Shown: positions 10,752-64,000, numbered from the stretch's first letter. The stretch is DNA of 64,000 nt from Bacteroidaceae bacterium (GCA_016280445.1 JAEEGS010000040.1:53998-117997); one strand, 5' to 3'. A program made the numbers and translations. Notes: generated by a model from the letters alone, not told the origin.

Positions 10752-12661
10752 CAAAGAGTAAGCTGTCACGCCGTATCACTTGGCGCGTTATCGGAATCAT
10801 ATCGTTCTTCAATGTGCTAATCATTGGAGCAATATTGGGGTTTGTCTTCGAAATTTCACTCGATACCAGCAGTACGCGTGGGCAGTACGTGACCGATGGG
10901 ATTGTCGGCAATATTGAGACCATGCTGCATGTGGCAAAGGCTGTTACATTCAACAACCGTGCCGAAGTGGAGGCTAATCTGGACAGTCCTGAGCATGTGT
11001 TCGACGCTATGGAGCACATCCTGCAGATCAACAAGGGGCTTGCAGGCTGTTTCGTTGCTTTTGAGCCTAACTATTTCAATGGTCAAGGGTCGGCCGATGG
11101 CCGATGGTTTGAGGCCTACGCCTATCACACCGACAGTACACACATCGAGCGCCGGCAGATAGGCTCTGCACAGCACGACTATTTCAATGGACCATGGTAT
11201 CAGCAGGCACTTTCCTTAGGCAGATACGACGACGGTTACCTGTCAGACATGTACTACGACGACACTGTCAACAGCGGTATGTTCTGCAGTTACGCCGTGC
11301 CCATCTTCGACCCTCAGGGGAACAAAGTTGGCGTATACGGCGTGGACCTGAGTATGGAATGGGTTGACAATGCCATCGAGGAAACGATGGGAAGCGTCAA
11401 GAAGGAATTCCTCGGCAACATTGAAGGAAACAATTATACGGCTGATAAGATCTATTTCTCCATCCAGATCCTCGACAGCAAGGGCAACAGGATTACAGGT
11501 TCTGACTCCATCGACATCTCTATTCTCAAAGGGGAGCAAGTGGATGTGAACGACGAACTTGAGATGAAAGACTTGAAGGGTACACCTTATTATATTAATT
11601 CCAAGCAAATAGGCCATACGGGCTGGACATTGGTTGTGCTCCAGCATCGCGAATTGGTGTTCTGGTGGGGAATCCTGTTCGCCGCCGCCATCTTGTTATT
11701 CATGGGCGTTGGTTGCCTGGCCATCTTCTTTTTCACGAGCCACAGCATCCGCCACGCCACAAAGCCGCTGAGATTCCTGTCTGAGGTGGCTCAAGAGGTG
11801 GCAACGGGTAACTTCGACACACCGCTGCCCACGTTTAAGGACAACGATGAAGTGGCTCAGATGCGCGACTCGTTCGGCACCATGCAACAGTCGCTGAAGC
11901 TGTATGTGGAGGAACTGAAGGCATCGACCGCAGCCAAGGCTTCTATCGAGAGTGAGTTGAATGTGGCGCACAGCATCCAGATGTCCATGCTACCCAAGAC
12001 TTTCCCCGCCTTCCCCGATCGCAAGGACATAGAGCTTTATGCTTCGCTGACACCAGCCAAAGCTGTTGGCGGCGACCTCTATGACTTCTTCATCCACAAT
12101 GAGAAACTGTTCTTCTGCATTGGCGACGTATCGGGCAAGGGCGTACCGGCCTCGTTAGTTATGGCAGTCAGCCGCACGCTCTTCCGCAATATCTCGGCCC
12201 ATACCGATAAGCCAAGCCATATCGTGAAAACGATGAACGTAAACATCTGCGAGGGCAACGACAACTGTATGTTCGTCACGTTGTTCGTTGGTGTGCTTGA
12301 CTTACAGACCGGCCATCTGCGCTACTGTAACGCTGGGCATGAATCGCCATACATCCAGGGCACCATGCTTCCGTGTGACTCCAATATGCCTGTTGGTATC
12401 ATGTCAGACCTTGAATACTCTGAGCAAGAAACAGACATCAATCCCGGAATGACTGTTTTCCTATATACTGATGGTCTGACCGAGGCCGAAAACGCCAAGC
12501 GTGATTTGTTTGGAAGGCAGCGTATCAACAATGTTATCACCACTTTTTCTGGTTCCCCTCAGCAGCTTATCGAAACCATGACTGCCGCCGTCCACCAGTA
12601 TGTCGGTGACACCGAGCAGAGCGACGACCTCACGATGCTGGCTTTTAAGTATAAGGGATAA
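10748..12661 (+). CDS. Membrane sensor PP2C phosphatase (periplasmic Cache-like domain, HAMP, SpoIIE/RsbU-type PP2C)
   Basis: Two TM segments and a HAMP-like linker ([25 protein letters not shown]). The SpoIIE motif [12 protein letters not shown] and a C-terminal DD(L/I)T motif are present. The start overlaps the upstream stop by 4 nt. Confidence 0.85.
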
Positions 12662-54789: not shown

Positions 54790-55896
54790 TTATTTGTTTT
54801 CTATAAATCCGTCCATAATGGCAGTGGGCTTGCCTTTGCTGTCAAACGCTCCCAGTTTATAGCCTCCAGGTCGACACTGAGGTTCCCAGTAGAACACACC
54901 ACGGCAATGGCCTCCTGTTTCGTTGCGGGCTTCGCGGATGACTCGCGCCAACTGACGTCGTCCTTCCTCCATGATTTCGGGATGCTGCTCATTCACTTCG
55001 TAGCCTGTCTCCACAATCATCACGTCGCAACCGTATTTCTCGCTCACATGGCGGATGTTCTTGATGCAGTTGGTGATGATGTCGTCGGCATTCAATTCAG
55101 GATGTCCTTCCATAGCCCAATAGGGATAGAGCGACATGCCCACCATGTCGAACTTGCCGCCATATTTCAGCACTGTGTCGAGGTTCCAGTCGTAGATGTC
55201 CTGCCGATGTCCACGGTCGAGGTGGACAATGACGATGGCTTTTGGGAAAACTTCCTTCACGGCATCGTAACCAGCACGGATAAATCCGGCATACTGTTGA
55301 GGCTCAGTCTTGATGTGACCCATGCTATGGGTGATGGTGGTGTGACCTTGTGCATCCTTCACTTCCCAGCCCTGCTCATTGGTCTTCACGCTCCAAAGCA
55401 TGCCGTTCGTGGTCTCGTTTCCCACCTGCACCCAGCGAGGCTCGATGCCGTTCTCCTTCAGCAGCGATAGCACCTCGATGGTGTGGTTTCTCACGTCCTG
55501 CTTCATCTCTTCAAATGAGTGTCCGAGCCAAGCCCTCGGGATGGGTTGCTTGCCGGGGTCTGCCCATGAGTCACTGTAGTGGAAGTCCACCATCAGGTCC
55601 ATGTCCAGCGCCTTCACCCGTTTAGCCATCGCCAAGAGTTCATTCTTGTCGCATGAACCACCACGGGGATTCACCCAGACACGCATGCGGATGGCTGACA
55701 TCTGGTAATCATTCTTCAGCAGTTCCAGACACTCGCGTTCTGTGCCTCGGACATCGTAGAATTTTTGTCCTTGACGCTCCTGTCCTGTAAGGAAGCCCAC
55801 ATCGGCACCTTTCACGAAGTCCTTGTCACCCTCCTGTGCTTTTAACAGCACTGTCTGTAACAACAGACATACTACAATAATAATCCTTATATTCAT
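54790..55896 (-). CDS. GH53 endo-beta-1,4-galactanase, secreted
   Basis: Signal peptide, plus IRMRVWVNP, WVQVGNETTNG and MIVETGY. Confidence 0.88.
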   Translation of the reverse strand: MNIRIIIVVCLLLQTVLLKAQEGDKDFVKGADVGFLTGQERQGQKFYDVRGTERECLELLKNDYQMSAIRMRVWVNPRGGSCDKNELLAMAKRVKALDMDLMVDFHYSDSWADPGKQPIPRAWLGHSFEEMKQDVRNHTIEVLSLLKENGIEPRWVQVGNETTNGMLWSVKTNEQGWEVKDAQGHTTITHSMGHIKTEPQQYAGFIRAGYDAVKEVFPKAIVIVHLDRGHRQDIYDWNLDTVLKYGGKFDMVGMSLYPYWAMEGHPELNADDIITNCIKNIRHVSEKYGCDVMIVETGYEVNEQHPEIMEEGRRQLARVIREARNETGGHCRGVFYWEPQCRPGGYKLGAFDSKGKPTAIMDGFIENK

Positions 55897-55971
55897 ATTC
55901 GTTTCTTATTTATTTGCTGACTTTCACACGCATGATGGCAATCCGTGTGTTATAGTTAGTAAAACTGGCCA

Positions 55972-55979
55972 CAAAGGTA
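55972..55979 (-). promoter_or_regulatory. -7 box TAccTTTG (minus strand) upstream of the GH53 gene
   Basis: CAAAGGTA on the plus strand, ~75 nt from the start at 55896. Confidence 0.5.
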
Positions 55980-56095
55980 CACAAGTTCGTTGTATTGCCG
56001 ATGAACTATTTGCCCAAACGTTTGCAAATATGTAACAATGGACGGTAATCTGTTATTTTTACGTGTGTTTTTGTCATTATTACACATATAGTTAT

Positions 56096-56103
56096 TATAT
56101 TTG
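56096..56103 (+). promoter_or_regulatory. -7 box TAtaTTTG upstream of the DUF4861-like gene
   Basis: Exact TAnnTTTG match, 24 nt before ATG 56127. Confidence 0.5.
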
Positions 56104-56126
56104 CAAGGAAAAAAAATGATTGACCA

Positions 56127-57371
56127 ATGAAAAAGACCTTTTTACTGACCCTCGTATGCCTGTTGGCTGCAGCAGCCTATGCTGCCAATCGTGTAACCAT
56201 TTCCGTGTCCAACCCCATCTCTTCTGCCCGTCTGGAGATAGTGGAGGTGGATGTGACTGCCCTCCAGATGCTGCCCGAGGCCGACAAAGACTTCGTTGTG
56301 ACCGATGCAGGTGGCAAGGAGATTCCCTCGCAGGTGACTTGGGACGGGAAACTCATCTTCCAGGCAGGAGTGGCTGGCAAGGGAAAATCGTTGTATTATG
56401 CACAAAAAGGCTCTCCACAGAACTATGAGGTAAAGGCGAAAGGACGTCTCTTCATCGAGCGTCAGGACGAGTTTGGCTGGGAGAACGACCGTGTGGCCTA
56501 CCGTGTGTATGGACATGGCGGCGCTGTGGGATACGACCTCTTCAACAAGAGCACCTCCGACCTCATGCTCGACTACTGGTATGCCTCTGAGCAGAATCAG
56601 GAAATGCGCTCGGTGAGCAAGCAACTGCACGACCGTGGTTACCACGACTTGGCCGACCAGGTGTACAACGCCTATTGCTACCACATCGACCACGGAAAGG
56701 GCATGGATTGCTACACCGTAGGGCCTACCCTCGGAGGTGGGGCCAACGCCCTTCTCAATGCCGATGGAACCCTCTTCATGCCCAAGTGCTACAAGTCTTT
56801 CGAGATTCTCGACCAGGGGCCACTCCGCTTCACCGTTCGCTTCACCTATCCCGAGCAGGACTTCAATGGGGAGAAAGTGACCGAAGTGCGCATCATCTCG
56901 CTCGATGCAGGCAGCCATTTCAACCGTGTCAGCATCACCTATCAGGGCTTGACAAAACCATCGAAGATGGCGGCAGGAACCGTCATCCACAAGTCTAATC
57001 CCTCAGCCTATGTGCTCTCTCAGGAGAATGGCTATCTGGGTTATGAAGATTTGGGCGATGCTTCCGTCTATAACGCCAAATACAAGGACGAACTGGCCAA
57101 GCAGATGGGAAAAATCTACATCGGGCTGCTCTTCCCCGACAAGGGCATCCTCACCACCTATCAGGCTCGCGAGAACGGCATCGCTACTGGCCACATCCTC
57201 GCCACCACCACCTACAAGCCCGCCACATCCTACACCTACTACTTTGGTTCTGGATGGGACAAGAACCCCAACACAGGCTTCCGTTCCCTCACCGACTGGG
57301 AAGCCCATCTGAGCCAATCCGCACAATGCGTGAGAACCCCACTGATAGTAAAATTGAGAAATAAAGGTTAA
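56127..57371 (+). CDS. Secreted DUF4861-like protein (associated with pectin/galactan loci)
   Basis: Signal peptide. The FGWENDRVAYRVYG motif is remembered as typical of DUF4861. The last 8 codons (IVKLRNKG-stop) are encoded by repeat B1. Confidence 0.6.
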   Translation: MKKTFLLTLVCLLAAAAYAANRVTISVSNPISSARLEIVEVDVTALQMLPEADKDFVVTDAGGKEIPSQVTWDGKLIFQAGVAGKGKSLYYAQKGSPQNYEVKAKGRLFIERQDEFGWENDRVAYRVYGHGGAVGYDLFNKSTSDLMLDYWYASEQNQEMRSVSKQLHDRGYHDLADQVYNAYCYHIDHGKGMDCYTVGPTLGGGANALLNADGTLFMPKCYKSFEILDQGPLRFTVRFTYPEQDFNGEKVTEVRIISLDAGSHFNRVSITYQGLTKPSKMAAGTVIHKSNPSAYVLSQENGYLGYEDLGDASVYNAKYKDELAKQMGKIYIGLLFPDKGILTTYQARENGIATGHILATTTYKPATSYTYYFGSGWDKNPNTGFRSLTDWEAHLSQSAQCVRTPLIVKLRNKG

Positions 57372-57456
57372 AGTTTAAGGGTTAAAGACCATGCGGTTTG
57401 TTTTTCAACATCGCGTTAGCCTTTCTTTAAACTTTAAACTGTAAACTCTAAACTTT
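57344..57456 (+). repeat. Family B intergenic repeat, copy B1
   Basis: GATAGTAAAATTGAGAAATAAAGGTTAAAGTTTAAGGGTTAAAGACCATGCGG...GCGTTAGCCTTTCTTTAAACTTTAAACTGTAAACTCTAAACTTT. The arms are partly complementary. It ends exactly at ATG 57457. Confidence 0.85.
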
Positions 57457-57888
57457 ATGAAGACTTGGATTGAAATAGACGGTCGTCTCATCGACTTGGA
57501 GGCACATTTGTCGAGAGCCCGCACCATCGTCACGCTGGGCAAGAACTCAGAAGAAGCCTATAACGTGATAGCCTTGGACGACGAGGAACTCGATGTGTTT
57601 CAGTGTCAGTTCACCCGTTCTGGCGAAGGTTGGAAAGTACAGAACGGACAGTGGCGCACCGACTGTCCGAAGGGCATCCACTCCCGTCTACAACACGCCT
57701 GCAGCCTCTGCATGGGATGCTGTGTCAATGTGCACCCTGGGCAACCCACCTACGGATGGCGACTGCCCGAAAAGCCCACCCTCTGCAACGGAACCGAGAT
57801 AGGCACCGAAGGGGTGGACTTGAAAGATGGTGATGTGATAGAAGTGGGGAAGAGACGAATGATAGTAAAATTGAAAAATAAAGGTTAA
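57457..57888 (+). CDS. Small FHA-like protein with a Cys-rich insertion
   Basis: 143 aa with an FHA-like pattern (TIVTLGKNSE..., ...CNGTEIGTEGVDLKDGDVIEVGKRRMIV) interrupted by CPKGIHSRLQHACSLCMGCC. The C-terminal IVKLKNKG-stop is encoded by repeat B2. Confidence 0.5.
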   Translation: MKTWIEIDGRLIDLEAHLSRARTIVTLGKNSEEAYNVIALDDEELDVFQCQFTRSGEGWKVQNGQWRTDCPKGIHSRLQHACSLCMGCCVNVHPGQPTYGWRLPEKPTLCNGTEIGTEGVDLKDGDVIEVGKRRMIVKLKNKG

Positions 57889-57977
57889 AGTTTAAGGGTT
57901 AAAGGTTAAAGACCATGCGGCTTGTATGCATCGCGTTAGCCTTTCTTTAAACTTTAAACTGTAAACTCTAAACTTTA
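57861..57977 (+). repeat. Family B intergenic repeat, copy B2
   Basis: Near-identical to B1, with one extra GGTTAAAG unit and a shorter centre. Its 3' end supplies the last codons and stop of the convergent aminotransferase gene. Confidence 0.85.
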
Positions 57978-59164
57978 TCCCCACTCAACTGCTTAAGCGC
58001 CTGCTCCAGCACACTTCGCTGGGTACCCACATTTAGGCGCATGAAACCCTCACCGCCAGGGCCGAACATCTCGCCGTCGTTGAGAGCGAGGTGCGCCTTG
58101 TTGACGAATAAGTCGATGAGTTCCCTGTGGTTCAAGCCCAAGTCGCGGCAGTCGAGCCACACCAGATAGGAGGCCTGTGGACGCACAGGCTTTATTTTCG
58201 GGATATGCTCACGACAGTAGTCGATGAGGAAGTCAATATTCCCCTCCACATACCGCAACATCTGCTGCCGCCACTCCTCCCCCTGTTGCAAGGCTGCGAT
58301 GGTGGCGATGGGCGCAAACATATTGGGGTCGTTCAGTTCGTTGGCTGCCAGCCACTGGTAGAACGGCTTGCGCAACGCCTCGTTCGGGATGATGCACCAC
58401 GAACTCACGATGCCCGCCATATTGAACGTCTTTGTCGGAGCACCAAACGTGATGCTCACCTCGGCTGCCTCGTCGTTCACCGAAGCAAAAGGAATGTGCT
58501 TGTTGTCCCATAGCGCCATGTCGCAGTGAATCTCGTCGCTGATGACGATGAGATGGTGCTCCTTCGCAAAGTGAGCCAATCGCTGCAACGTCTCCCTGTC
58601 CCACACGAGGCCAGCAGGGTTGTGGGGATTTGCCAAGATGAGCAGACGACACTTCTCGTCGTACACCTGTTCGAGATTCTCGAAGTCCATCTCATAAAAG
58701 ACTCTCTCCCCATTATGGGGGAGGGCTGGGGAGAGGGTCTCCTTCAGCGGATTCCACACCACCTCCCGTTTGTTTCCCCTTGGGGTCAGGTAGAACGGAT
58801 GGTAGATGGGTGGTTGCACAATCACCTTCTCGTCCTCCTTCAGGAAGAAGTTGATAACCATGCCGATGCCCTTCACGATGCCAGGGATGTAGGTCAACCA
58901 TTCACGTTCCACCTTCCATTGGTGGTGCGCCTCTATCCATTGCTGCACCGTTGGCCAATAGTCCTTGGGTTCGACCGTATAGCCGAACAGCGAGTGGTTG
59001 AGCCGTTGTTTCAGGGCATCCGTGATGAAGGAAGGGGTTTCCCAATCCATATCAGCCACCCACAAGGGCACCAAATCACTCCGTCCATATCGTTCCTGAA
59101 GCACCTCATGCTTCAAATCGCCCGACCCACTGCGGTCAACGGGCTTGTCAAAATCGTATCTCAT
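57968..59164 (-). CDS. PLP-dependent C-S lyase / aminotransferase (PatB/MalY family, cystathionine beta-lyase-like)
   Basis: 398 aa class-I aminotransferase fold with the PatB/MalY-typical N-terminus (YDFDKPVDRSGSGDLKH) and APTKTFNMAG (PLP-Lys region). Confidence 0.8.
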   Translation of the reverse strand: MRYDFDKPVDRSGSGDLKHEVLQERYGRSDLVPLWVADMDWETPSFITDALKQRLNHSLFGYTVEPKDYWPTVQQWIEAHHQWKVEREWLTYIPGIVKGIGMVINFFLKEDEKVIVQPPIYHPFYLTPRGNKREVVWNPLKETLSPALPHNGERVFYEMDFENLEQVYDEKCRLLILANPHNPAGLVWDRETLQRLAHFAKEHHLIVISDEIHCDMALWDNKHIPFASVNDEAAEVSITFGAPTKTFNMAGIVSSWCIIPNEALRKPFYQWLAANELNDPNMFAPIATIAALQQGEEWRQQMLRYVEGNIDFLIDYCREHIPKIKPVRPQASYLVWLDCRDLGLNHRELIDLFVNKAHLALNDGEMFGPGGEGFMRLNVGTQRSVLEQALKQLSGDKV

Positions 59165-59310
59165 ATTTCCTTACTTTTTGCAAAGTTACATAATCTCAAA
59201 TAAAAATGCCCCATGCAGTCTTCACAGATTGCAATGGGGCGGACAAAAAACTTCATCAGTATATTTTGAAGTCTTGTGTATGGCTTCTTATCGTTGTGAA
59301 TTCCACCCAA

Positions 59311-60897
59311 CTATCGAACATCAGCCACAATGCGTTCCAAGGCGATGACCAGACGGTCAACCTCTTCTTTGGTGTTATACACAGCAAAGGTGGGACGCAC
59401 GGACATTTCGTAGCCGAGGGCACGGAGGGCAGGTTGGGCACAGTGGTGTCCTGCACGCACGGCTATGCCCTCTTTGTCAAGCAACTGTCCCACCTGAGGG
59501 GCTGGAATACCCGGAATGTCGAGCGAGATGACGCTGACACGTTTCTTGGGGTTGCCCATGATGGTGATGCCTGGGATGCGTGATATTTGCTGTCGAGCAT
59601 ACTCGGTGAGTTCATGCTCGTGGCGTTCGATGTTGTGGATGCCCACACTCTGCACGAAGTCGAGCGCATAGCCCAATCCGATGGCATCGGCAATATTGGG
59701 TGTTCCTGCTTCGAAGCGAGCTGGAGGCACATTGAACTCGGTGCGCTCGAGGGTCACATCCTTGATCATGTTGCCTCCACCTTGCCAGGGTGGGAGCTGT
59801 TCGAGCCATTCCTTCTTTCCATAAACCACACCGATGCCCGAAGGCCCGTAAATCTTGTGGCCAGAGAAGACGAAGAAGTCTGCGTCGAGTTGCTGTACAT
59901 CCACCTTGGTGTGGGCGATGGACTGTGCACCATCGATGAGTACGGGGATGCCGTGGGCGTGAGCAGTGCGGATGATGCTTGCCACGTCGTTGATGGTGCC
60001 AAAAGTATTGTTCACATGACCTACGCTGACGAACTTGGTGCGGGGCGTGATGAGACGCTCCAGTTCGCTGAGGATGAGGTCACCGTTCTTGTCGATAGGG
60101 ATGGCACGGAGTTCTGCCTTACGTTCCTTGCTGATTTGCTGCCAAGGCACGATGTTGGCGTGGTGGTCAAGGGTGGAGACAATCACGTTGTCGCCCTCTT
60201 CCAAGAACTTGCGTCCGAAGGTCTGTGCCACGAGGTTGATGCCCTCGGTGGTGCCGCGCACAAAGAGGATGTTCTCCTTGGATGGGGCATTGATGAAACG
60301 GGCCACCTTCTCTCGTGCACCTTCATACTGGTCGGTGCTTCGTGCTGCCAGCGTGTGTGCGCCACGGTGTATGTTGGAGTAGTCCGTCTTGTAGAAGTGG
60401 CTCACTCCGTCAATGACCCTCAGAGGCTTCTGCGTGGTGGCACCATTGTCGAACCACACGAGGTCGTGCCCGTTCACCTTCTGATGCAGAATGGGGAACT
60501 GCTTGCGAATCTCGTCGGTGTTGACCGTGTCAGCCTCGTCGTAGTGGAGGTGCCGCACGATGTCCGTCTCTGGGATGCCAATGCCGAACCCGTTGTCAGT
60601 TGACAGTTGAGAGTCGAAAGTGGGCAGTTGGGCATCATCCGAATAGGATGCACCAGCAGGAGCAGACTGCCCCGATTGCAAGTCCTCGGCAAAGTACTTC
60701 TCCACCACTTTGCGGAAGAGGCACTGGTCAGCAGAACTCAGCCCACCAATCTGGGGTGCTGCACCCCCTGCCAAGGAAGTGGCGGGAATGGGCAGTGATG
60801 ACAAGTCCAACTCGTCAGGAGCCTCGTTCGGCACAGCCACCTGCGGCACATTACCCCTATCCGGCAAGTCAAAATGGAAATTATCTAATTCGTACAT
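59311..60897 (-). CDS. SufS-type (group II) cysteine desulfurase with a ~125-aa low-complexity N-terminal extension; candidate encapsulin cargo
   Basis: Core motifs HHANIVPWQ, SGHKIYGPSGIGV (PLP-Lys) and RAGHHCAQP (catalytic Cys). The N-terminal 125 aa are rich in P/S/A/G/D/Q, with one amphipathic stretch, CLFRKVVEKYFAEDL. Confidence 0.85.
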   Translation of the reverse strand: MYELDNFHFDLPDRGNVPQVAVPNEAPDELDLSSLPIPATSLAGGAAPQIGGLSSADQCLFRKVVEKYFAEDLQSGQSAPAGASYSDDAQLPTFDSQLSTDNGFGIGIPETDIVRHLHYDEADTVNTDEIRKQFPILHQKVNGHDLVWFDNGATTQKPLRVIDGVSHFYKTDYSNIHRGAHTLAARSTDQYEGAREKVARFINAPSKENILFVRGTTEGINLVAQTFGRKFLEEGDNVIVSTLDHHANIVPWQQISKERKAELRAIPIDKNGDLILSELERLITPRTKFVSVGHVNNTFGTINDVASIIRTAHAHGIPVLIDGAQSIAHTKVDVQQLDADFFVFSGHKIYGPSGIGVVYGKKEWLEQLPPWQGGGNMIKDVTLERTEFNVPPARFEAGTPNIADAIGLGYALDFVQSVGIHNIERHEHELTEYARQQISRIPGITIMGNPKKRVSVISLDIPGIPAPQVGQLLDKEGIAVRAGHHCAQPALRALGYEMSVRPTFAVYNTKEEVDRLVIALERIVADVR

Positions 60898-61008
60898 AAA
60901 GTTTAGAGTTTATAGTTTAAAGTTTAAAGAAAGGCTAACGCAGTGTTGAAAAACAAACCGCATGGTCTTTAACCTTTAACCCTTAAACTTTAACCTTTAT
61001 TTTTCAAT
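60898..61008 (-). repeat. Family B intergenic repeat, copy B3, filling the shell-cargo spacer
   Basis: The reverse complement matches B1/B2 (ATTGAAAAATAAAGGTTAAAGTTTAAGGGTTAAAGGTTAAAGACCATGCGG...CTTTAAACTTTAAACTATAAACTCTAAACTTT). It contains the shell gene stop and abuts the desulfurase ATG. Confidence 0.85.
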
Positions 61009-62436
61009 CTTGTTTCTGTGCTGATAATCGTGATAGTAGCCCACCTCCACATTCTCGAGGACTGCAATCGCATCGTCGGTGAGAGAAGCGAGGCTGAAAT
61101 ACTTGGTGAGCAGATAACTTGCCACGCCATACTGGTCAAGACCCATCAAACGTGCCGAGAGGCTTGGAGCGATTTCGCCAGGGATGCCAGCCTGATGCAG
61201 ACCTACCACACCCTGCTCTTTCTCGCCTACACGCACAAGGATAATCTCAGTGGTGCCCACGCCACGATTGGTCAGGTACTGACCCTTGATTTCCACCTTG
61301 TCAGATGGGATGATAGGCACACCACGCCAAGTGATGACTTTCGTGCCGAAGAGGTCGATAGACACAGGAGGCACACCACGCCAAGTGCACTCACGCTCGA
61401 AAGCAGCGATGGCACGTGGGTTGGCAATGAAGAAAGCAGGCTCTTTCCACACGAGTGACAGGAGTTCGTCGAGGTCGTCAGGTGTAGGCGCACCATAACG
61501 TGTGCTGATTTTGTAGCCTGGAGCCGTCTGAGCCAAGAGTCCGAACTTCTTGTTGTTGATGAGTTCCCACTCCTGACGCTCCTTGATGCTTTCGATGGAG
61601 AGGCGCAACTGCTGTTCGAGCTGGTTGTAGGGAGCGTTGTAGAGGTCACTCACACGGGTGTGTACACGCACCACTGTCTGCAGGGTATTGAGAGAGTACT
61701 CTGTTGGATTCTCCTCATAGTCAATATAGGTCTCTGGGATGACATTATCCTCCTCATGACCGCTCACAAGGTCAATATGCTTCTCACCGTGATCATTCAC
61801 CGTAGCCTTCAGACGCAGGTGCTCATCCACCGCCTTGTTGAACTGCTCGCGGAAGTCAGGAATCTCCTCGATGAGTGACTCCAATACAGGAGTCTCCAAT
61901 GCCAGGAACACAGAATCCGTCACGGCACGTACACTCACCGTAGAGTCTGCCGCACTCAGCAAGTCAGCCTCACCGAAGTACTCACCATCGCCCAAGAGTG
62001 CGATGCGCAGTTCCTCACCATGAGTACCTGTGCTGATGACCTCAGCCTGTCCATTAGCCACGATGAAGAACTTCTGCTTGTCCTTTCCCTGAGTGACGAG
62101 GTTCTTGCCACGAGCCACCTCTACAGGCACGAAATTGCGAGCCAAACGAGCCACAATCTCCTGCTTGATGTTCTGGAAGAGCGGAATGGCACGGAGATTC
62201 TTCGCCGTGAAACTGGGCACGCCATCGAAGTACTGAATCTCGATGCGTTCAGCCTTTTTCAGTTCCACCTTCGTACGGTTCACACGATAGGTGCCACTTT
62301 CCACCTGCTGCCAGGGAAGGAGTTTGAGGAGAAGTCTCGGTGTGATACTGCCCATTTGAGGGGCTGTCTTGGTGGTGTTCGCTAGTTTGCGAGCCGTTGC
62401 AGTCGTGATACTGCGCTGAATGTTGTTGTCTGCCAT
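60997..62436 (-). CDS. Family 2B-type encapsulin shell protein candidate (cNMP-binding-domain insertion plus HK97-like body)
   Basis: 479 aa. Residues ~80-190 form a CAP-type cyclic-nucleotide-binding fold (LFQNI..., GDGEYFGE...VRAVT). The remainder has no enzyme motifs. It lies immediately upstream of an N-terminally extended cysteine desulfurase, which is the hallmark Family 2 arrangement. Confidence 0.7.
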   Translation of the reverse strand: MADNNIQRSITTATARKLANTTKTAPQMGSITPRLLLKLLPWQQVESGTYRVNRTKVELKKAERIEIQYFDGVPSFTAKNLRAIPLFQNIKQEIVARLARNFVPVEVARGKNLVTQGKDKQKFFIVANGQAEVISTGTHGEELRIALLGDGEYFGEADLLSAADSTVSVRAVTDSVFLALETPVLESLIEEIPDFREQFNKAVDEHLRLKATVNDHGEKHIDLVSGHEEDNVIPETYIDYEENPTEYSLNTLQTVVRVHTRVSDLYNAPYNQLEQQLRLSIESIKERQEWELINNKKFGLLAQTAPGYKISTRYGAPTPDDLDELLSLVWKEPAFFIANPRAIAAFERECTWRGVPPVSIDLFGTKVITWRGVPIIPSDKVEIKGQYLTNRGVGTTEIILVRVGEKEQGVVGLHQAGIPGEIAPSLSARLMGLDQYGVASYLLTKYFSLASLTDDAIAVLENVEVGYYHDYQHRNKIEK

Positions 62437-62456: not shown

Positions 62457-62852
62457 TTATCTTAGTGTAATTTTCTCAGTTACTTCTCCCTCTGCGATGC
62501 GGAAAGCATTGAGCACAGGTTTCTCTTCTGCCAGCGAGAGGATGAAATAGAGGATGTTAGGGTCGTATGCCAAGCGCTTGTCTTCTTCCGAAGGACGGGA
62601 GGGTGAAGCAGGATGGCTGTGCCAGTTGCCCACAATCTTCAAGCCCTGCTGACGGGCATATTTGATGGCGGCAAACTGCTCCTTGGGGTCGAAACTGAAG
62701 TGCTCCTCCGAGTGGTCGATGTTGGTCATCGGGAAGTTCTCCGTAGCCGTTTCCTTGTCGGGACCCAGCAGATAACCGCACGACTCCACAGGGGCATCCT
62801 TCTGTGCTTGCGCCAAGATGGACTGATATGCCGATTCCGTGATAGTGACCAT
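62457..62852 (-). CDS. JAMM/MPN+ metalloprotease (Mov34 family; Mec+/QbsD-like)
   Basis: 131 aa with the JAMM motif HSHPASPSRPSEED (HxHx7SxxD) and an upstream Glu (VESCGYLLG). Its start overlaps the TusA stop by 1 nt (TAATG). Confidence 0.85.
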   Translation of the reverse strand: MVTITESAYQSILAQAQKDAPVESCGYLLGPDKETATENFPMTNIDHSEEHFSFDPKEQFAAIKYARQQGLKIVGNWHSHPASPSRPSEEDKRLAYDPNILYFILSLAEEKPVLNAFRIAEGEVTEKITLR

Positions 62853-63076
62853 TACTTTTGTATTGTTACTTTGTGAACATTTCCTTCCACGTGTTCCACG
62901 GAGAGGACGTTGTAGCCCTGTTCCTTCGCCGAACGAGGCACATTCTCCAAAGGTTCCCCTTCAGTCAGGAGCACTTCAAGTGTGTCACCTGCTGCTATCT
63001 GCGCCAATTTGAGTTTGGTCTTTACGAAGGTCATGGGGCAATGTTCCTTCGTGATGTCAAGTGTATGTATAGCCAT
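62852..63076 (-). CDS. TusA/SirA-family sulfurtransferase
   Basis: 74 aa with the conserved Cys motif LDITKEHCPMTFVKTK. Confidence 0.85.
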   Translation of the reverse strand: MAIHTLDITKEHCPMTFVKTKLKLAQIAAGDTLEVLLTEGEPLENVPRSAKEQGYNVLSVEHVEGNVHKVTIQK

Positions 63077-63091
63077 AATGAAAGTGAAAAA

Positions 63092-63571
63092 TTAAATAAA
63101 CAAAGTCTGTCCTCCCTCGCTGAGGTTCAGGAATGAGGCTACACCGAGCACATCCTTCACTTCGGGGATGAAATCTGTCTTTTCCAAACCGAGCACGTGC
63201 ATCGCCATCTCGCAGGCATAGAGGTTCACACCCAATGCATTGGCTGCATCGACGAGTTCTTCGAGGGTAGCCACGTTGTTCTTACGCATCAAGGAGCGGA
63301 AGATTTGAGGGCCAATGCCAGCGAAGTTGAAGCGGCTGTTGGGGGCGACACTCAGTCCACCCATCATGAAACCAAAGAGTTTCGTGAGCCAGTTGCCACC
63401 CGTGAAACTGCGTCCACGCTTCTGCTTGATGGCATCCAAACCCCAGAAGGTGAAGAAGATGTTGACCTCGTAACCCACAGCAGCAGCACCTGTTGCCAGC
63501 GTGAAAACTGCTGTCAGTTTATCGAAGTCGCCAGAGAAGGCGATGAGTGAGAGTTTCTTTTGTTCTGCCAT
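63092..63571 (-). CDS. DsrE/DsrF-like sulfur-relay family protein
   Basis: ~159 aa (start set at MAEQKKLSLIAFSG). DsrE-like Rossmann pattern with the conserved Cys in LYACEMAM. Confidence 0.7.
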   Translation of the reverse strand: MAEQKKLSLIAFSGDFDKLTAVFTLATGAAAVGYEVNIFFTFWGLDAIKQKRGRSFTGGNWLTKLFGFMMGGLSVAPNSRFNFAGIGPQIFRSLMRKNNVATLEELVDAANALGVNLYACEMAMHVLGLEKTDFIPEVKDVLGVASFLNLSEGGQTLFI

Positions 63572-63578
63572 ATTCTTT

Positions 63579-64000
63579 TTATTTGTGTAGGTCGCAAGCA
63601 GCCTGTTCGTAATCAATGAGTTCTGTGATGGTTGGATTCGTGCCACAGATGGGGCATCGGTCTGTCTTCTTCACATTGATCTTGCGGAAGTCCATCGTCT
63701 TGGCATTGAAGGTGAGCAACTTGTTGGTGAGCAGTTCGCCCACACCTGTCAGGTACTTCAACGTTTCTGCTGCCTGAATCGTGCCCAACATACCTGCAAT
63801 GGCTCCCAACACACCTGCCTGACTGCACGTAGGCACGGCTCCTGGTGGGGGTGGTGTCTTAAACATACAACGGTAACAAGCTGTTCCTGGCACATGGGTG
63901 AAGGTTTGTCCCTCAAAACGGAGGATGCCACCATGACTGAAAGGTTTGCCTGCCATCACACAGGCATCGTTGATGAGGAACTTCACAGGGAAGTTATCGG
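63579..64000 (-). CDS. ThiF/MoeB-type E1-like adenylyltransferase, C-terminal part (the gene continues beyond the window)
   Basis: ...LINDACVMAGKPFSHGG..., with zinc-binding CxxC pairs (CYRC, CPIC) as in MoeB/ThiF. The frame is open to the window edge. Confidence 0.8.
   Translation of the reverse strand, partial: DNFPVKFLINDACVMAGKPFSHGGILRFEGQTFTHVPGTACYRCMFKTPPPPGAVPTCSQAGVLGAIAGMLGTIQAAETLKYLTGVGELLTNKLLTFNAKTMDFRKINVKKTDRCPICGTNPTITELIDYEQAACDLHK

Follow-up and report, generated by a model that had tools for sequence, protein, structure and literature searches.

Introduction

A census published in 2021 counted 1,281 Family 2A and 199 Family 2B encapsulin operons with desulfurase cargo; the 2B desulfurase operons span nine phyla and are distributed similarly to the 2A operons, among which Bacteroidetes are the third-ranking phylum, and the accessory genes enriched in desulfurase operons encode serine O-acetyltransferase and rhodanese (Andreas & Giessen, PMC8346489). 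Every desulfurase encapsulin characterised so far is of the 2A type (PMC8049743, PMC10836720). In a 2A system the stored product is elemental sulfur (Benisch et al. 2024, PMC10836720); the four 2A operon types contain only rhodanese, acetyltransferase, shell and desulfurase genes, and the remobilisation and fate of the stored sulfur are stated to be unexplained (PMC10836720). Desulfurase cargo occurs in about 9% of 2B systems, and the only characterised 2B shell is that of Streptomyces griseus, in which what the insertion domain binds and does is still to be explained (PMC11550324). Here we describe a locus on the minus strand of a 64,000-nucleotide (nt) stretch of DNA from a Bacteroidaceae bacterium (GCA_016280445.1, JAEEGS010000040.1:53998-117997; the whole stretch is called the window), in which a Family 2B shell gene and an adjoining cysteine desulfurase gene lie within a set of genes for sulfur transfer and sulfur carriage.

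An earlier interpretation of the window, made without database searches and referred to here as the sequence-only reading, had recognised the shell and the desulfurase, had stated correctly that the characterised desulfurase encapsulins are all of the 2A type, and had presented a 2B desulfurase system as new biology. That claim of novelty was overstated, because the class had already been catalogued in 199 operons from nine phyla, and relatives of the shell carry the family name in NCBI annotation made by PGAP. The locus adds no new class and its novelty is modest; what is new is the conserved sulfur-relay and sulfur-carrier context. This surrounding operon, absent from the sequence-only reading, is the most informative feature of the locus. 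We consider it rather probable that the locus as a whole represents a Family 2B desulfurase encapsulin set within an operon for sulfur trafficking. No earlier description of a linkage between an encapsulin and TusA, DsrE or ThiS was found in the searchable literature, in which few subscription journals were covered.

Results

The shell gene (60997..62436, minus strand) encodes a protein of 479 residues, which was assigned to the Family 2B encapsulin shells by a family model, by its domain composition (SrpI-like plus cNMP_binding) and by alignment with solved shells. The NCBIfam model NF041163 for family 2B shells, a curated equivalog model with a cut-off of 400 bits, scored 562.4 bits and aligned residues 9-466 with model positions 1-449 of 450. 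Pfam placed cNMP_binding (PF00027, E = 4e-15) at residues 105-190 and SrpI-like (PF19307, 'Type 2A encapsulin shell', E = 5e-112) at residues 209-466. The protein can be divided into an N-arm (residues 1-56; 62269..62436), an inserted nucleotide-binding-fold domain with its linker (residues ~57-223; 61768..62268) and an HK97 body (residues 224-479; 61000..61767), all on the minus strand. Both open reading frames (ORFs) of the sequence-only reading were recovered exactly where it had placed them, on the minus strand; the embedded CAP-type domain that it described is the cNMP_binding domain, the body that it called enzyme-motif-free is a recognised HK97-type shell domain, and the hidden Markov model check that it proposed for the shell returned 562 bits against the 400 of NF041163.

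Alignment with PDB entries extended from end to end for the solved Streptomyces 2B shells 9bje, 9bix and 9bhu (E = 1e-98 to 1e-110), with 9bje as the best of the three (E = 1.5e-110). The 2A shell SrpI (6x8m) aligned with the N-arm (residues 1-56 against SrpI 1-56) and with the body (residues 224-474). When the body alone (259 residues, window 60997-61776) was compared, the 2A shells SrpI, Acinetobacter baumannii 8t6r and Mycobacterium leprae MMP-I scored 303-313 bits, against 234-260 bits for the solved Streptomyces 2B shells. Judged by these alignments, the protein is in effect a '2A-desulfurase-type' body bearing a 2B insertion. Since the body has its nearest solved relatives among the 2A desulfurase shells, ahead of the Streptomyces 2B shells, shell phylogeny seems to track the type of cargo and not the inserted domain. 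The pattern of body scores also bears on whether 2A and 2B are to be defined phylogenetically or by the domain, for which two usages compete (PMC8049743 versus PMC8346489). From the local similarity of about 60% to solved shells we infer that the protein assembles into a closed icosahedral shell.

The desulfurase gene (59311..60897, minus strand) encodes a class II (SufS-type) cysteine desulfurase of 528 residues, which is the cargo candidate. An Aminotran_5 Pfam domain occupies residues 147-516, the SufS model TIGR01979 scores 553 bits against a cut-off of 475, and the catalytic motifs SGHK, with the lysine that binds pyridoxal phosphate (PLP), and RAGHHCA, the cysteine loop, are both present; the closest solved match is 8kg1 (498 bits). 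The identity of the 479-residue shell and of the 528-residue desulfurase, as judged from these matches, can be regarded as very nearly certain.

The catalytic domain of the desulfurase (residues 126-528) is preceded by a variable N-terminal extension (residues 1-125; 60523..60897, minus strand) that matches no family. Its conservation was assessed among relatives. A genome scan of GTDB species representatives yielded more than 541 relatives, of which the best 80 have shells 81-99% identical. Over 75 relatives the mean column identity was 0.39 in the extension versus 0.85 in the catalytic domain. The extension was present in all scored relatives and rich in insertions and deletions, and its length up to a conserved FPIL motif varied from 83 to 168 residues. 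Within it stands a conserved island, LFRKVVEKYFAE, near residues 60-72, which bears a loose likeness to the first 2A motif, LARLANEFFS, and in whose place more distant relatives carry LESVFDSFKSLL and LDALYQSFLNLS; a second island, GFGIGIPE (residues 103-110), was found in 61 of the 75 relatives. The loading domains of 2A cargo have been described as sparse motifs in a fast-evolving, poorly conserved linker (PMC8049743, PMC10836720), a pattern that the extension appears to resemble. We infer from the low conservation, the insertions and deletions and the composition that the extension is disordered; its charge-hydropathy value is borderline. The group II desulfurase with an extension of about 125 residues, as described in the earlier interpretation, is therefore well founded (TIGR01979, 553 bits; variable extension), and the word 'disordered' used there is to be read as a prediction.

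The desulfurase gene is the direct downstream neighbour of the shell gene in 71 of 72 relatives; in most of them the cargo ATG abuts or overlaps the shell stop codon, the gap being -4 to +8 nt. The defining arrangement of Family 2, a 2B shell adjoined by a desulfurase with an N-terminal extension, had thus been correctly recognised. By analogy with the 2A systems, encapsulation of the desulfurase is highly probable. In the locus of Viscerimonas tarda (L084 11452-13014, GCA_054601255.1) the full desulfurase ORF of 520 residues begins 11 nt after the shell stop codon. The public call begins at 11776 (412 residues), 324 nt late, and omits the N-terminal extension, which indicates that automated choice of start codons can hide encapsulin loading domains.

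Upstream of the shell gene, on the same strand, lies a gene for a JAB/JAMM metalloprotease of 131 residues (62457..62852; Pfam Prok-JAB, E = 1.2e-25), whose metal-binding motif HSHPAxPSRPSxED is intact and is conserved in relatives. Its start shares one nucleotide with the stop of a gene for a TusA-family sulfur carrier of 74 residues (62852..63076, minus strand; Pfam TusA, E = 1.7e-22) with a conserved active-site cysteine motif, EHCPMTFV. Next follows a DsrE2-like sulfur-transfer protein of 159 residues, counted from the methionine that matches relatives (63092..63571, minus strand; DrsE_2, PF13686, E = 7.5e-39); its cysteine motif YACEMAMHVLGL is conserved at no less than 95%, and we use the term 'DsrE2-like' because the protein reaches only 70 of the 210 bits that the NCBIfam DsrE2 equivalog requires. 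The last gene, for an E1 adenylyltransferase of the MoeB/ThiF type, is cut off by the end of the window, which contains only its 3' part (63579..64000, minus strand).

The gene set can be followed further in a related locus, L001, which encodes an identical shell protein and in which the order is LuxR-type regulator, Cys/Met PLP enzyme, PALP enzyme, ThiS, ThiF, DsrE2-like, TusA, JAB, shell, desulfurase and PatB. The full-length E1 orthologue there (269 residues) matches Pfam ThiF with E = 7e-84 and the MoeB subfamily model PRK05690 with 286 bits (cut-off 266), and the motifs GAGGLG, PTCSQAG and CxxC...CxxC are kept in 68 relatives. A rhodanese domain is missing from the E1, which must therefore obtain its sulfur from an outside donor; MoeB enzymes of this rhodanese-less kind are known to be supplied either by a cysteine desulfurase or by another protein that carries sulfane sulfur (PMC3227635). 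The L001 PALP enzyme passes the cysK equivalog TIGR01139 (452 bits against 351) and the ThiS protein passes TIGR01683 (64 bits against 37), and the Cys_Met_Meta_PP enzyme is nearest to O-acetyl- and O-succinyl-homoserine sulfhydrylases while staying under every specific cut-off. The ThiS protein ends in a near-invariant FLYFMGG, followed in most relatives by a glycine and one to eight variable residues; because these trailing residues mask the reactive Gly-Gly end, it must be exposed by a protease. A role of ThiS and ThiF in thiamine or molybdopterin synthesis was considered and judged unlikely: no ThiG, ThiH or MoaE occurs among the called genes of L001, and JAB and two sulfhydrylase-type genes are present there.

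Linkage of these genes to the encapsulin was then compared across the relatives. TusA lies upstream of the shell gene in 73 of 73 relatives, and the DsrE2-like gene is directly upstream of TusA and shell in 72 of the 73. Counts for the remaining genes were restricted to the 41 loci with at least 5 kb of flanking sequence on both sides: ThiS, ThiF and JAB are linked in 38 of these, a CysK-like gene also in 38, and a Cys/Met PLP (homocysteine-synthase-like) gene in 34. Twelve different gene orders were found, with the ThiS module upstream, downstream or inverted. That the linkage outlasts so much rearrangement argues for a functional connection.

All of the best 80 loci come from metagenome-assembled genomes (MAGs) of Bacteroidales, the great majority of which were recovered from cattle, sheep, goat, yak, buffalo and deer (rumen, reticulum or omasum). 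The relatives are labelled as Bacteroidaceae or Prevotellaceae MAGs, with shells up to 99% identical; the proposed Prevotella-like host is accordingly about right, and the niche, for which gut or mouth had been suggested, is the ruminant foregut and not the mouth. A protein search returned 7,995 clusters at E 1e-20, the best 120 of which all show at least 77% identity, and NCBI/PGAP names some close relatives (Parabacteroides, Dysgonamonadaceae, Viscerimonas tarda) 'family 2B encapsulin nanocompartment shell protein'. The same core is present in Dysgonomonadaceae and Tannerellaceae; Tannerellaceae keep the entire gene set, and Viscerimonas keeps only CysK, DsrE2, TusA, shell and desulfurase. 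In one Tannerellaceae MAG (L086; 9134-9979, 4937-5368) a gene for a CysE-like serine O-acetyltransferase (best match 159 bits, below the cut-off of 210) stands directly before the shell gene, and a thioredoxin-like gene lies upstream of the cluster; through this variant the operon type is connected with those classical desulfurase encapsulin operons that include an acetyltransferase gene. The Prevotella sp. MAG RGIG5985 has two copies of the cluster (L048 and L053, on JAFWQT010000044 and JAFWQT010000092), with shells each 82% identical to the query; these are either paralogues within a single genome or the result of strains mixed during binning.

The inserted domain is the least conserved part of the shell, yet its column identity is still about 0.8 and its pocket residues are invariant. 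Its cassette reads FGEADLLSAADSTVSVRA, in which the FGE glutamate is kept and the arginine of the phosphate-binding cassette is absent. When the alignment is anchored on the VRAxT segment, the position of CRP R82 is taken by Ser165, a serine in 82 of 84 relatives, which a phmmer alignment pairs with the tryptophan of solved 9bje. Binding of cyclic AMP (cAMP) is absent in Sg Enc, the 2B shell of S. griseus, and this has been attributed to Trp176 in place of the same arginine (PMC11550324), and nearly all 2B shells are without this arginine (Andreas & Giessen 2024, PMC11550324). With a conserved serine in place of the phosphate-binding arginine, canonical gating by cAMP or cyclic GMP (cGMP) is unlikely. 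The idea of a ligand-gated shell therefore loses its cyclic-nucleotide version to Ser165 and the Sg Enc result and would have to be recast: judging from the conserved pocket, the outer domain probably binds a ligand other than cAMP or cGMP, and either such a ligand or a partner protein is plausible for the inserted domain.

In the window, the shell and desulfurase genes are separated by a spacer of 99 nt (60898..60996, minus strand), one copy of a dispersed element that is palindromic and about 105 bp long. Three copies, about 90% identical, lie within 4 kb (57345-57465 and 57862-57985 on the plus strand, 60898-61004 on the minus strand), and a 17-mer from the element has three matches where none is expected. 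The element folds as a long hairpin (minimum free energy -27.8 kcal/mol, z = -3.6). Each copy is bounded exactly by a stop codon and the next ATG; the element provides the 'KL(K/R)NKG*' C-termini of a 414-residue and a 143-residue ORF and forms the whole of the shell-cargo spacer. In L001, which lacks the element, the shell TAA is followed directly by the ATG. The spacer element is thus a lineage-specific insertion and not a conserved part of the system, and its insertion might change the ratio of shell to cargo expression.

Beyond the desulfurase lies a gene for a PatB-family C-S lyase (57968..59164, minus strand; TIGR04350, 440 bits against a cut-off of 340), which is present in only 5 of the 41 well-flanked relatives. 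The 146-nt spacer between desulfurase and PatB (59165-59310, minus strand) contains TAACTTTG about 20 nt before the PatB ATG, which we take to fit the Bacteroidetes -7 promoter consensus TAnnTTTG. The low occurrence of PatB and this -7-like box suggest separate transcription; PatB was therefore rejected as a part of the system and is probably a neighbour outside its core. A scan for sigma-70 promoters and terminators gave sites no commoner than in shuffled sequence, with a model ill-suited to Bacteroidetes promoters, and no riboswitch or other RNA was returned when the operon was scanned against Rfam, both in L001 and in the window. L001 and the window have an identical shell and a 98% identical cargo but diverge beyond PatB (L001 13180-17701, window 55800-59164), where L001 runs into DUF4492 and cytochrome bd genes and the window has a 143-residue ORF with a weak FHA-like match, a 414-residue ORF and two long ORFs on the opposite strand. 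The palindromic elements are located at this breakpoint.

Discussion

The gene linkage described above argues for functional coupling of the shell and its cargo to the DsrE2/TusA and ThiS route, a proposition on which we find the balance even. In the mechanism that we propose, by analogy with 2A and 2B systems, the shell would self-assemble into a compartment of icosahedral symmetry, probably T=1, that bears the inserted domains on its outer face, and the desulfurase would be packaged via the short conserved islands in its N-terminal extension. Cysteine would enter by the pores, and sulfane sulfur would accumulate inside as persulfide or elemental sulfur. Its exit, if the linkage is a guide, could be a persulfide relay of the DsrE2-like protein and TusA, replacing the rhodanese of classical desulfurase encapsulin operons; for the hand-over from the shell, a small sulfane carrier, reductive release or docking at a pore has to be assumed. 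The relay would then supply the rhodanese-less MoeB/ThiF E1, which would adenylate the ThiS-like carrier once the JAB protease had removed the residues that mask its Gly-Gly terminus. ThiS thiocarboxylate made in this way would then provide sulfide to both PLP enzymes, the CysK-type and the homocysteine-synthase-like one, and cysteine or homocysteine may be released from ThiS adducts, again by the JAB protease. The fullest form of this proposal is a dedicated, insulated line running from cysteine through sulfane sulfur in the shell, the DsrE2-like/TusA pair and ThiS thiocarboxylate to homocysteine or cysteine, with the outer domain docking or sensing and thereby controlling release; we offer it tentatively, as possible with the odds somewhat against it.

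Several points weigh against the proposal. The 2B desulfurase class is experimentally uncharacterised. An AlphaFold2 model of the shell, run with an alignment of 23 relatives at 78% identity or more, gave predicted local distance difference test (pLDDT) values of 70-93 for residues 63-206 and values below 50, that is low confidence, for the HK97 body, so that the HK97 assignment rests on homology to solved shells. A Foldseek search with this model, which counts in favour of the shell identity but to which we give little weight, returned the S. griseus 2B shell 9bhu as the top match, followed by CAP, PKG and HCN domains, which matched the inserted domain with TM-target values up to 0.78. For the cargo, the Family 2 cargo desulfurase model NF041166 is the top-scoring model at 695 bits and falls under its cut-off of 800, because only the catalytic part aligns (model positions 219-623); this model was built for 2A cargo with extensions of about 220 residues. 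The cargo search that the sequence-only reading had suggested thus found the expected family as its best match and stayed short of the threshold. No clear copy of the 2A motifs LARLANEFFS and AASPYYFLDG was found in the cargo extension, which at about 125 residues is half as long as the 2A loading domains. The linkage counts are not phylogenetically independent, since the 80 loci are all close Bacteroidales relatives (shell identity 81% or higher), and the cultured isolate V. tarda has no ThiS, ThiF or JAB within 10 kb. The hand-over step has no known mechanism, because TusA and DsrE2 proteins cannot pass encapsulin pores. Remaking cysteine sulfur into cysteine looks circular and would be sensible only for homocysteine synthesis or for use of a store. 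Finally, free sulfide is abundant in the rumen and may simply be the substrate of the CysK-type enzyme, which scores above the cut-off of the ordinary cysK equivalog.

This last point leads to the alternative that survives best, which we regard as unlikely and still deserving of serious attention: the encapsulin would work alone, as a sulfur store or cysteine buffer in the manner of the 2A systems, and its neighbours would be only co-regulated and fed by free sulfide or another donor. The abundance of sulfide in the rumen would suit such an arrangement, as would the ThiS module, which shifts its position relative to the shell gene and is missing near the V. tarda cluster, and no protein could get into the shell to fetch the sulfur. 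Shells of the 2A type, moreover, hold sulfur without such neighbours (PMC10836720). Against this stand the DsrE2-like and TusA genes, which keep their place beside the shell gene in 72 to 73 of 73 relatives while other genes shuffle, and which hold the position of the putative acceptor rhodanese in 2A operons; the E1, without a sulfur-donor domain of its own, would also be left to find its sulfur elsewhere.

It is improbable that the flow runs in reverse, with the thiocarboxylate pathway and the CysK-type enzyme making cysteine from sulfide, the encapsulated desulfurase storing the surplus, and the operon in this way filling the compartment. The cysteine synthase, and in Tannerellaceae the CysE-like acetyltransferase, lie just upstream of the shell gene, and filling would fit the serine acetyltransferase of the classical operons, but this direction leaves DsrE2/TusA and the rhodanese-less E1 without a sulfur donor and offers no reason why 34 of 41 relatives should have the homocysteine-synthase-like gene. 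A selenium system, in which the desulfurase would be a selenocysteine lyase, the shell would sequester elemental selenium and the TusA-like protein would be a YedF-type carrier, is very improbable: the best NCBIfam matches of the TusA protein are indeed YedF selenium-metabolism models, and SufS/CsdB enzymes have been solved under the name selenocysteine lyase, but every YedF match is under cut-off (46 bits against 79), there is no selD, selA or other selenium gene in the neighbourhood, and the linked enzymes are cysteine and homocysteine synthases. That there is no compartment at all, the 479-residue protein being a soluble Crp/Fnr-like regulator and the desulfurase a free enzyme of Fe-S assembly, is hardly credible even though many databases name relatives 'cyclic nucleotide-binding domain-containing protein' and 2B-shell PDB entries are titled 'Crp/Fnr family transcriptional regulator', since no helix-turn-helix family was found in the protein and CRP/FtrB models match its nucleotide-binding fold only (18-28 bits against 180-300), its C-terminal 256 residues are the SrpI-like HK97 body, which matches solved shells with 303-313 bits, the neighbourhood contains no SufBCD or SufE/U genes, and the S. 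griseus protein with the same old annotation was shown to be a shell (PMC11550324).

The reading that we favour, an encapsulated desulfurase coupled to a sulfur relay and a sulfur carrier, offers concrete candidate acceptors and a measurable end product, so that sulfur remobilisation becomes testable in vitro. If the insulated line were true, it would be the first defined exit route and metabolic sink for sulfur held in an encapsulin, and it would give the 2B insertion a function. The locus belongs to a very abundant lineage of Bacteroidales, with over 540 species genomes and some 8,000 protein clusters, and points to an unstudied route in the cysteine and methionine sulfur economy of dominant rumen bacteria. 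One cultured relative, Viscerimonas tarda, has the core genes.

Comparison with described systems

The 2A desulfurase encapsulins of Synechococcus elongatus (SrpI/CyD, 6x8m), A. baumannii (8t6r) and M. leprae (MMP-I, 8wol/9ksl) share the HK97 body and the N-arm with the shell described here. In both, the cargo is of the SufS type, has a poorly conserved N-terminal extension and is encoded next to the shell gene, and by analogy the chemistry is expected to be the same, with cysteine converted to alanine and stored sulfane sulfur. The differences lie in the shell, which at this locus has an inserted nucleotide-binding-fold domain of about 170 residues; in the cargo extension, which has about 125 residues instead of about 225 and in which the 2A motifs are not clearly present; and in the accessory genes, which are DsrE2-like, TusA, ThiS, ThiF, JAB, CysK and MetY-like in place of rhodanese and serine O-acetyltransferase. 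The hosts, strictly anaerobic rumen Bacteroidales, are also unlike those of the 2A systems.

With the Streptomyces 2B shells (S. griseus EshA/Sg Enc, 9bhu, together with 9bje and 9bix) the protein shares its full-length layout of N-arm, inserted domain, linker and HK97 body, and the cyclic-phosphate-binding arginine is missing in both. The pocket position holds serine here and tryptophan in the aligned 9bje. The Streptomyces cargo is a terpene cyclase or prenyltransferase, whereas that of the present locus is a desulfurase, and the locus has a single shell gene where Streptomyces 2B systems frequently have a pair.

The carrier genes resemble two protein-thiocarboxylate pathways. Krishnamoorthy and Begley reportedly described, in 2011, an HcyS-HcyF-HcyD-MetY pathway of this kind for homocysteine in Wolinella succinogenes. 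The C-terminus of Wolinella HcyS is masked and is matured proteolytically by HcyD, and the ThiS protein of the present locus is like HcyS in having a masked C-terminus that needs such maturation. In Mycobacterium tuberculosis, MoeZR makes the CysO thiocarboxylate via a fused rhodanese, CysM uses this thiocarboxylate, and the JAMM protease Mec+ cleaves the adduct (PMC3227635). The CysO and HcyS pathways and the present locus all bring together, in one cluster, a Gly-Gly carrier of the ThiS fold, an E1, a JAMM protease and PLP sulfhydrylases. Unlike the M. tuberculosis CysO system, the locus has an E1 without rhodanese, with the DsrE2-like/TusA pair and a predicted encapsulated desulfurase instead, and its cysteine synthase is of the CysK and not the CysM type.

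Pairs of DsrE and TusA proteins are documented sulfur relays, as in the DsrE3A-DsrE2B-TusA arrangement of Metallosphaera (PMC4175335) and in sHdr-associated cascades (PMC11094781). The relays of sulfur oxidisers and the present locus alike have a PF13686-type DsrE-family protein beside TusA, with conserved active-site cysteines, although the DsrE2 equivalog is not passed by the protein of the locus. The setting differs, being a dissimilatory sulfur-oxidation cluster in the known relays and an assimilatory operon of a fermentative anaerobe in the locus described here.

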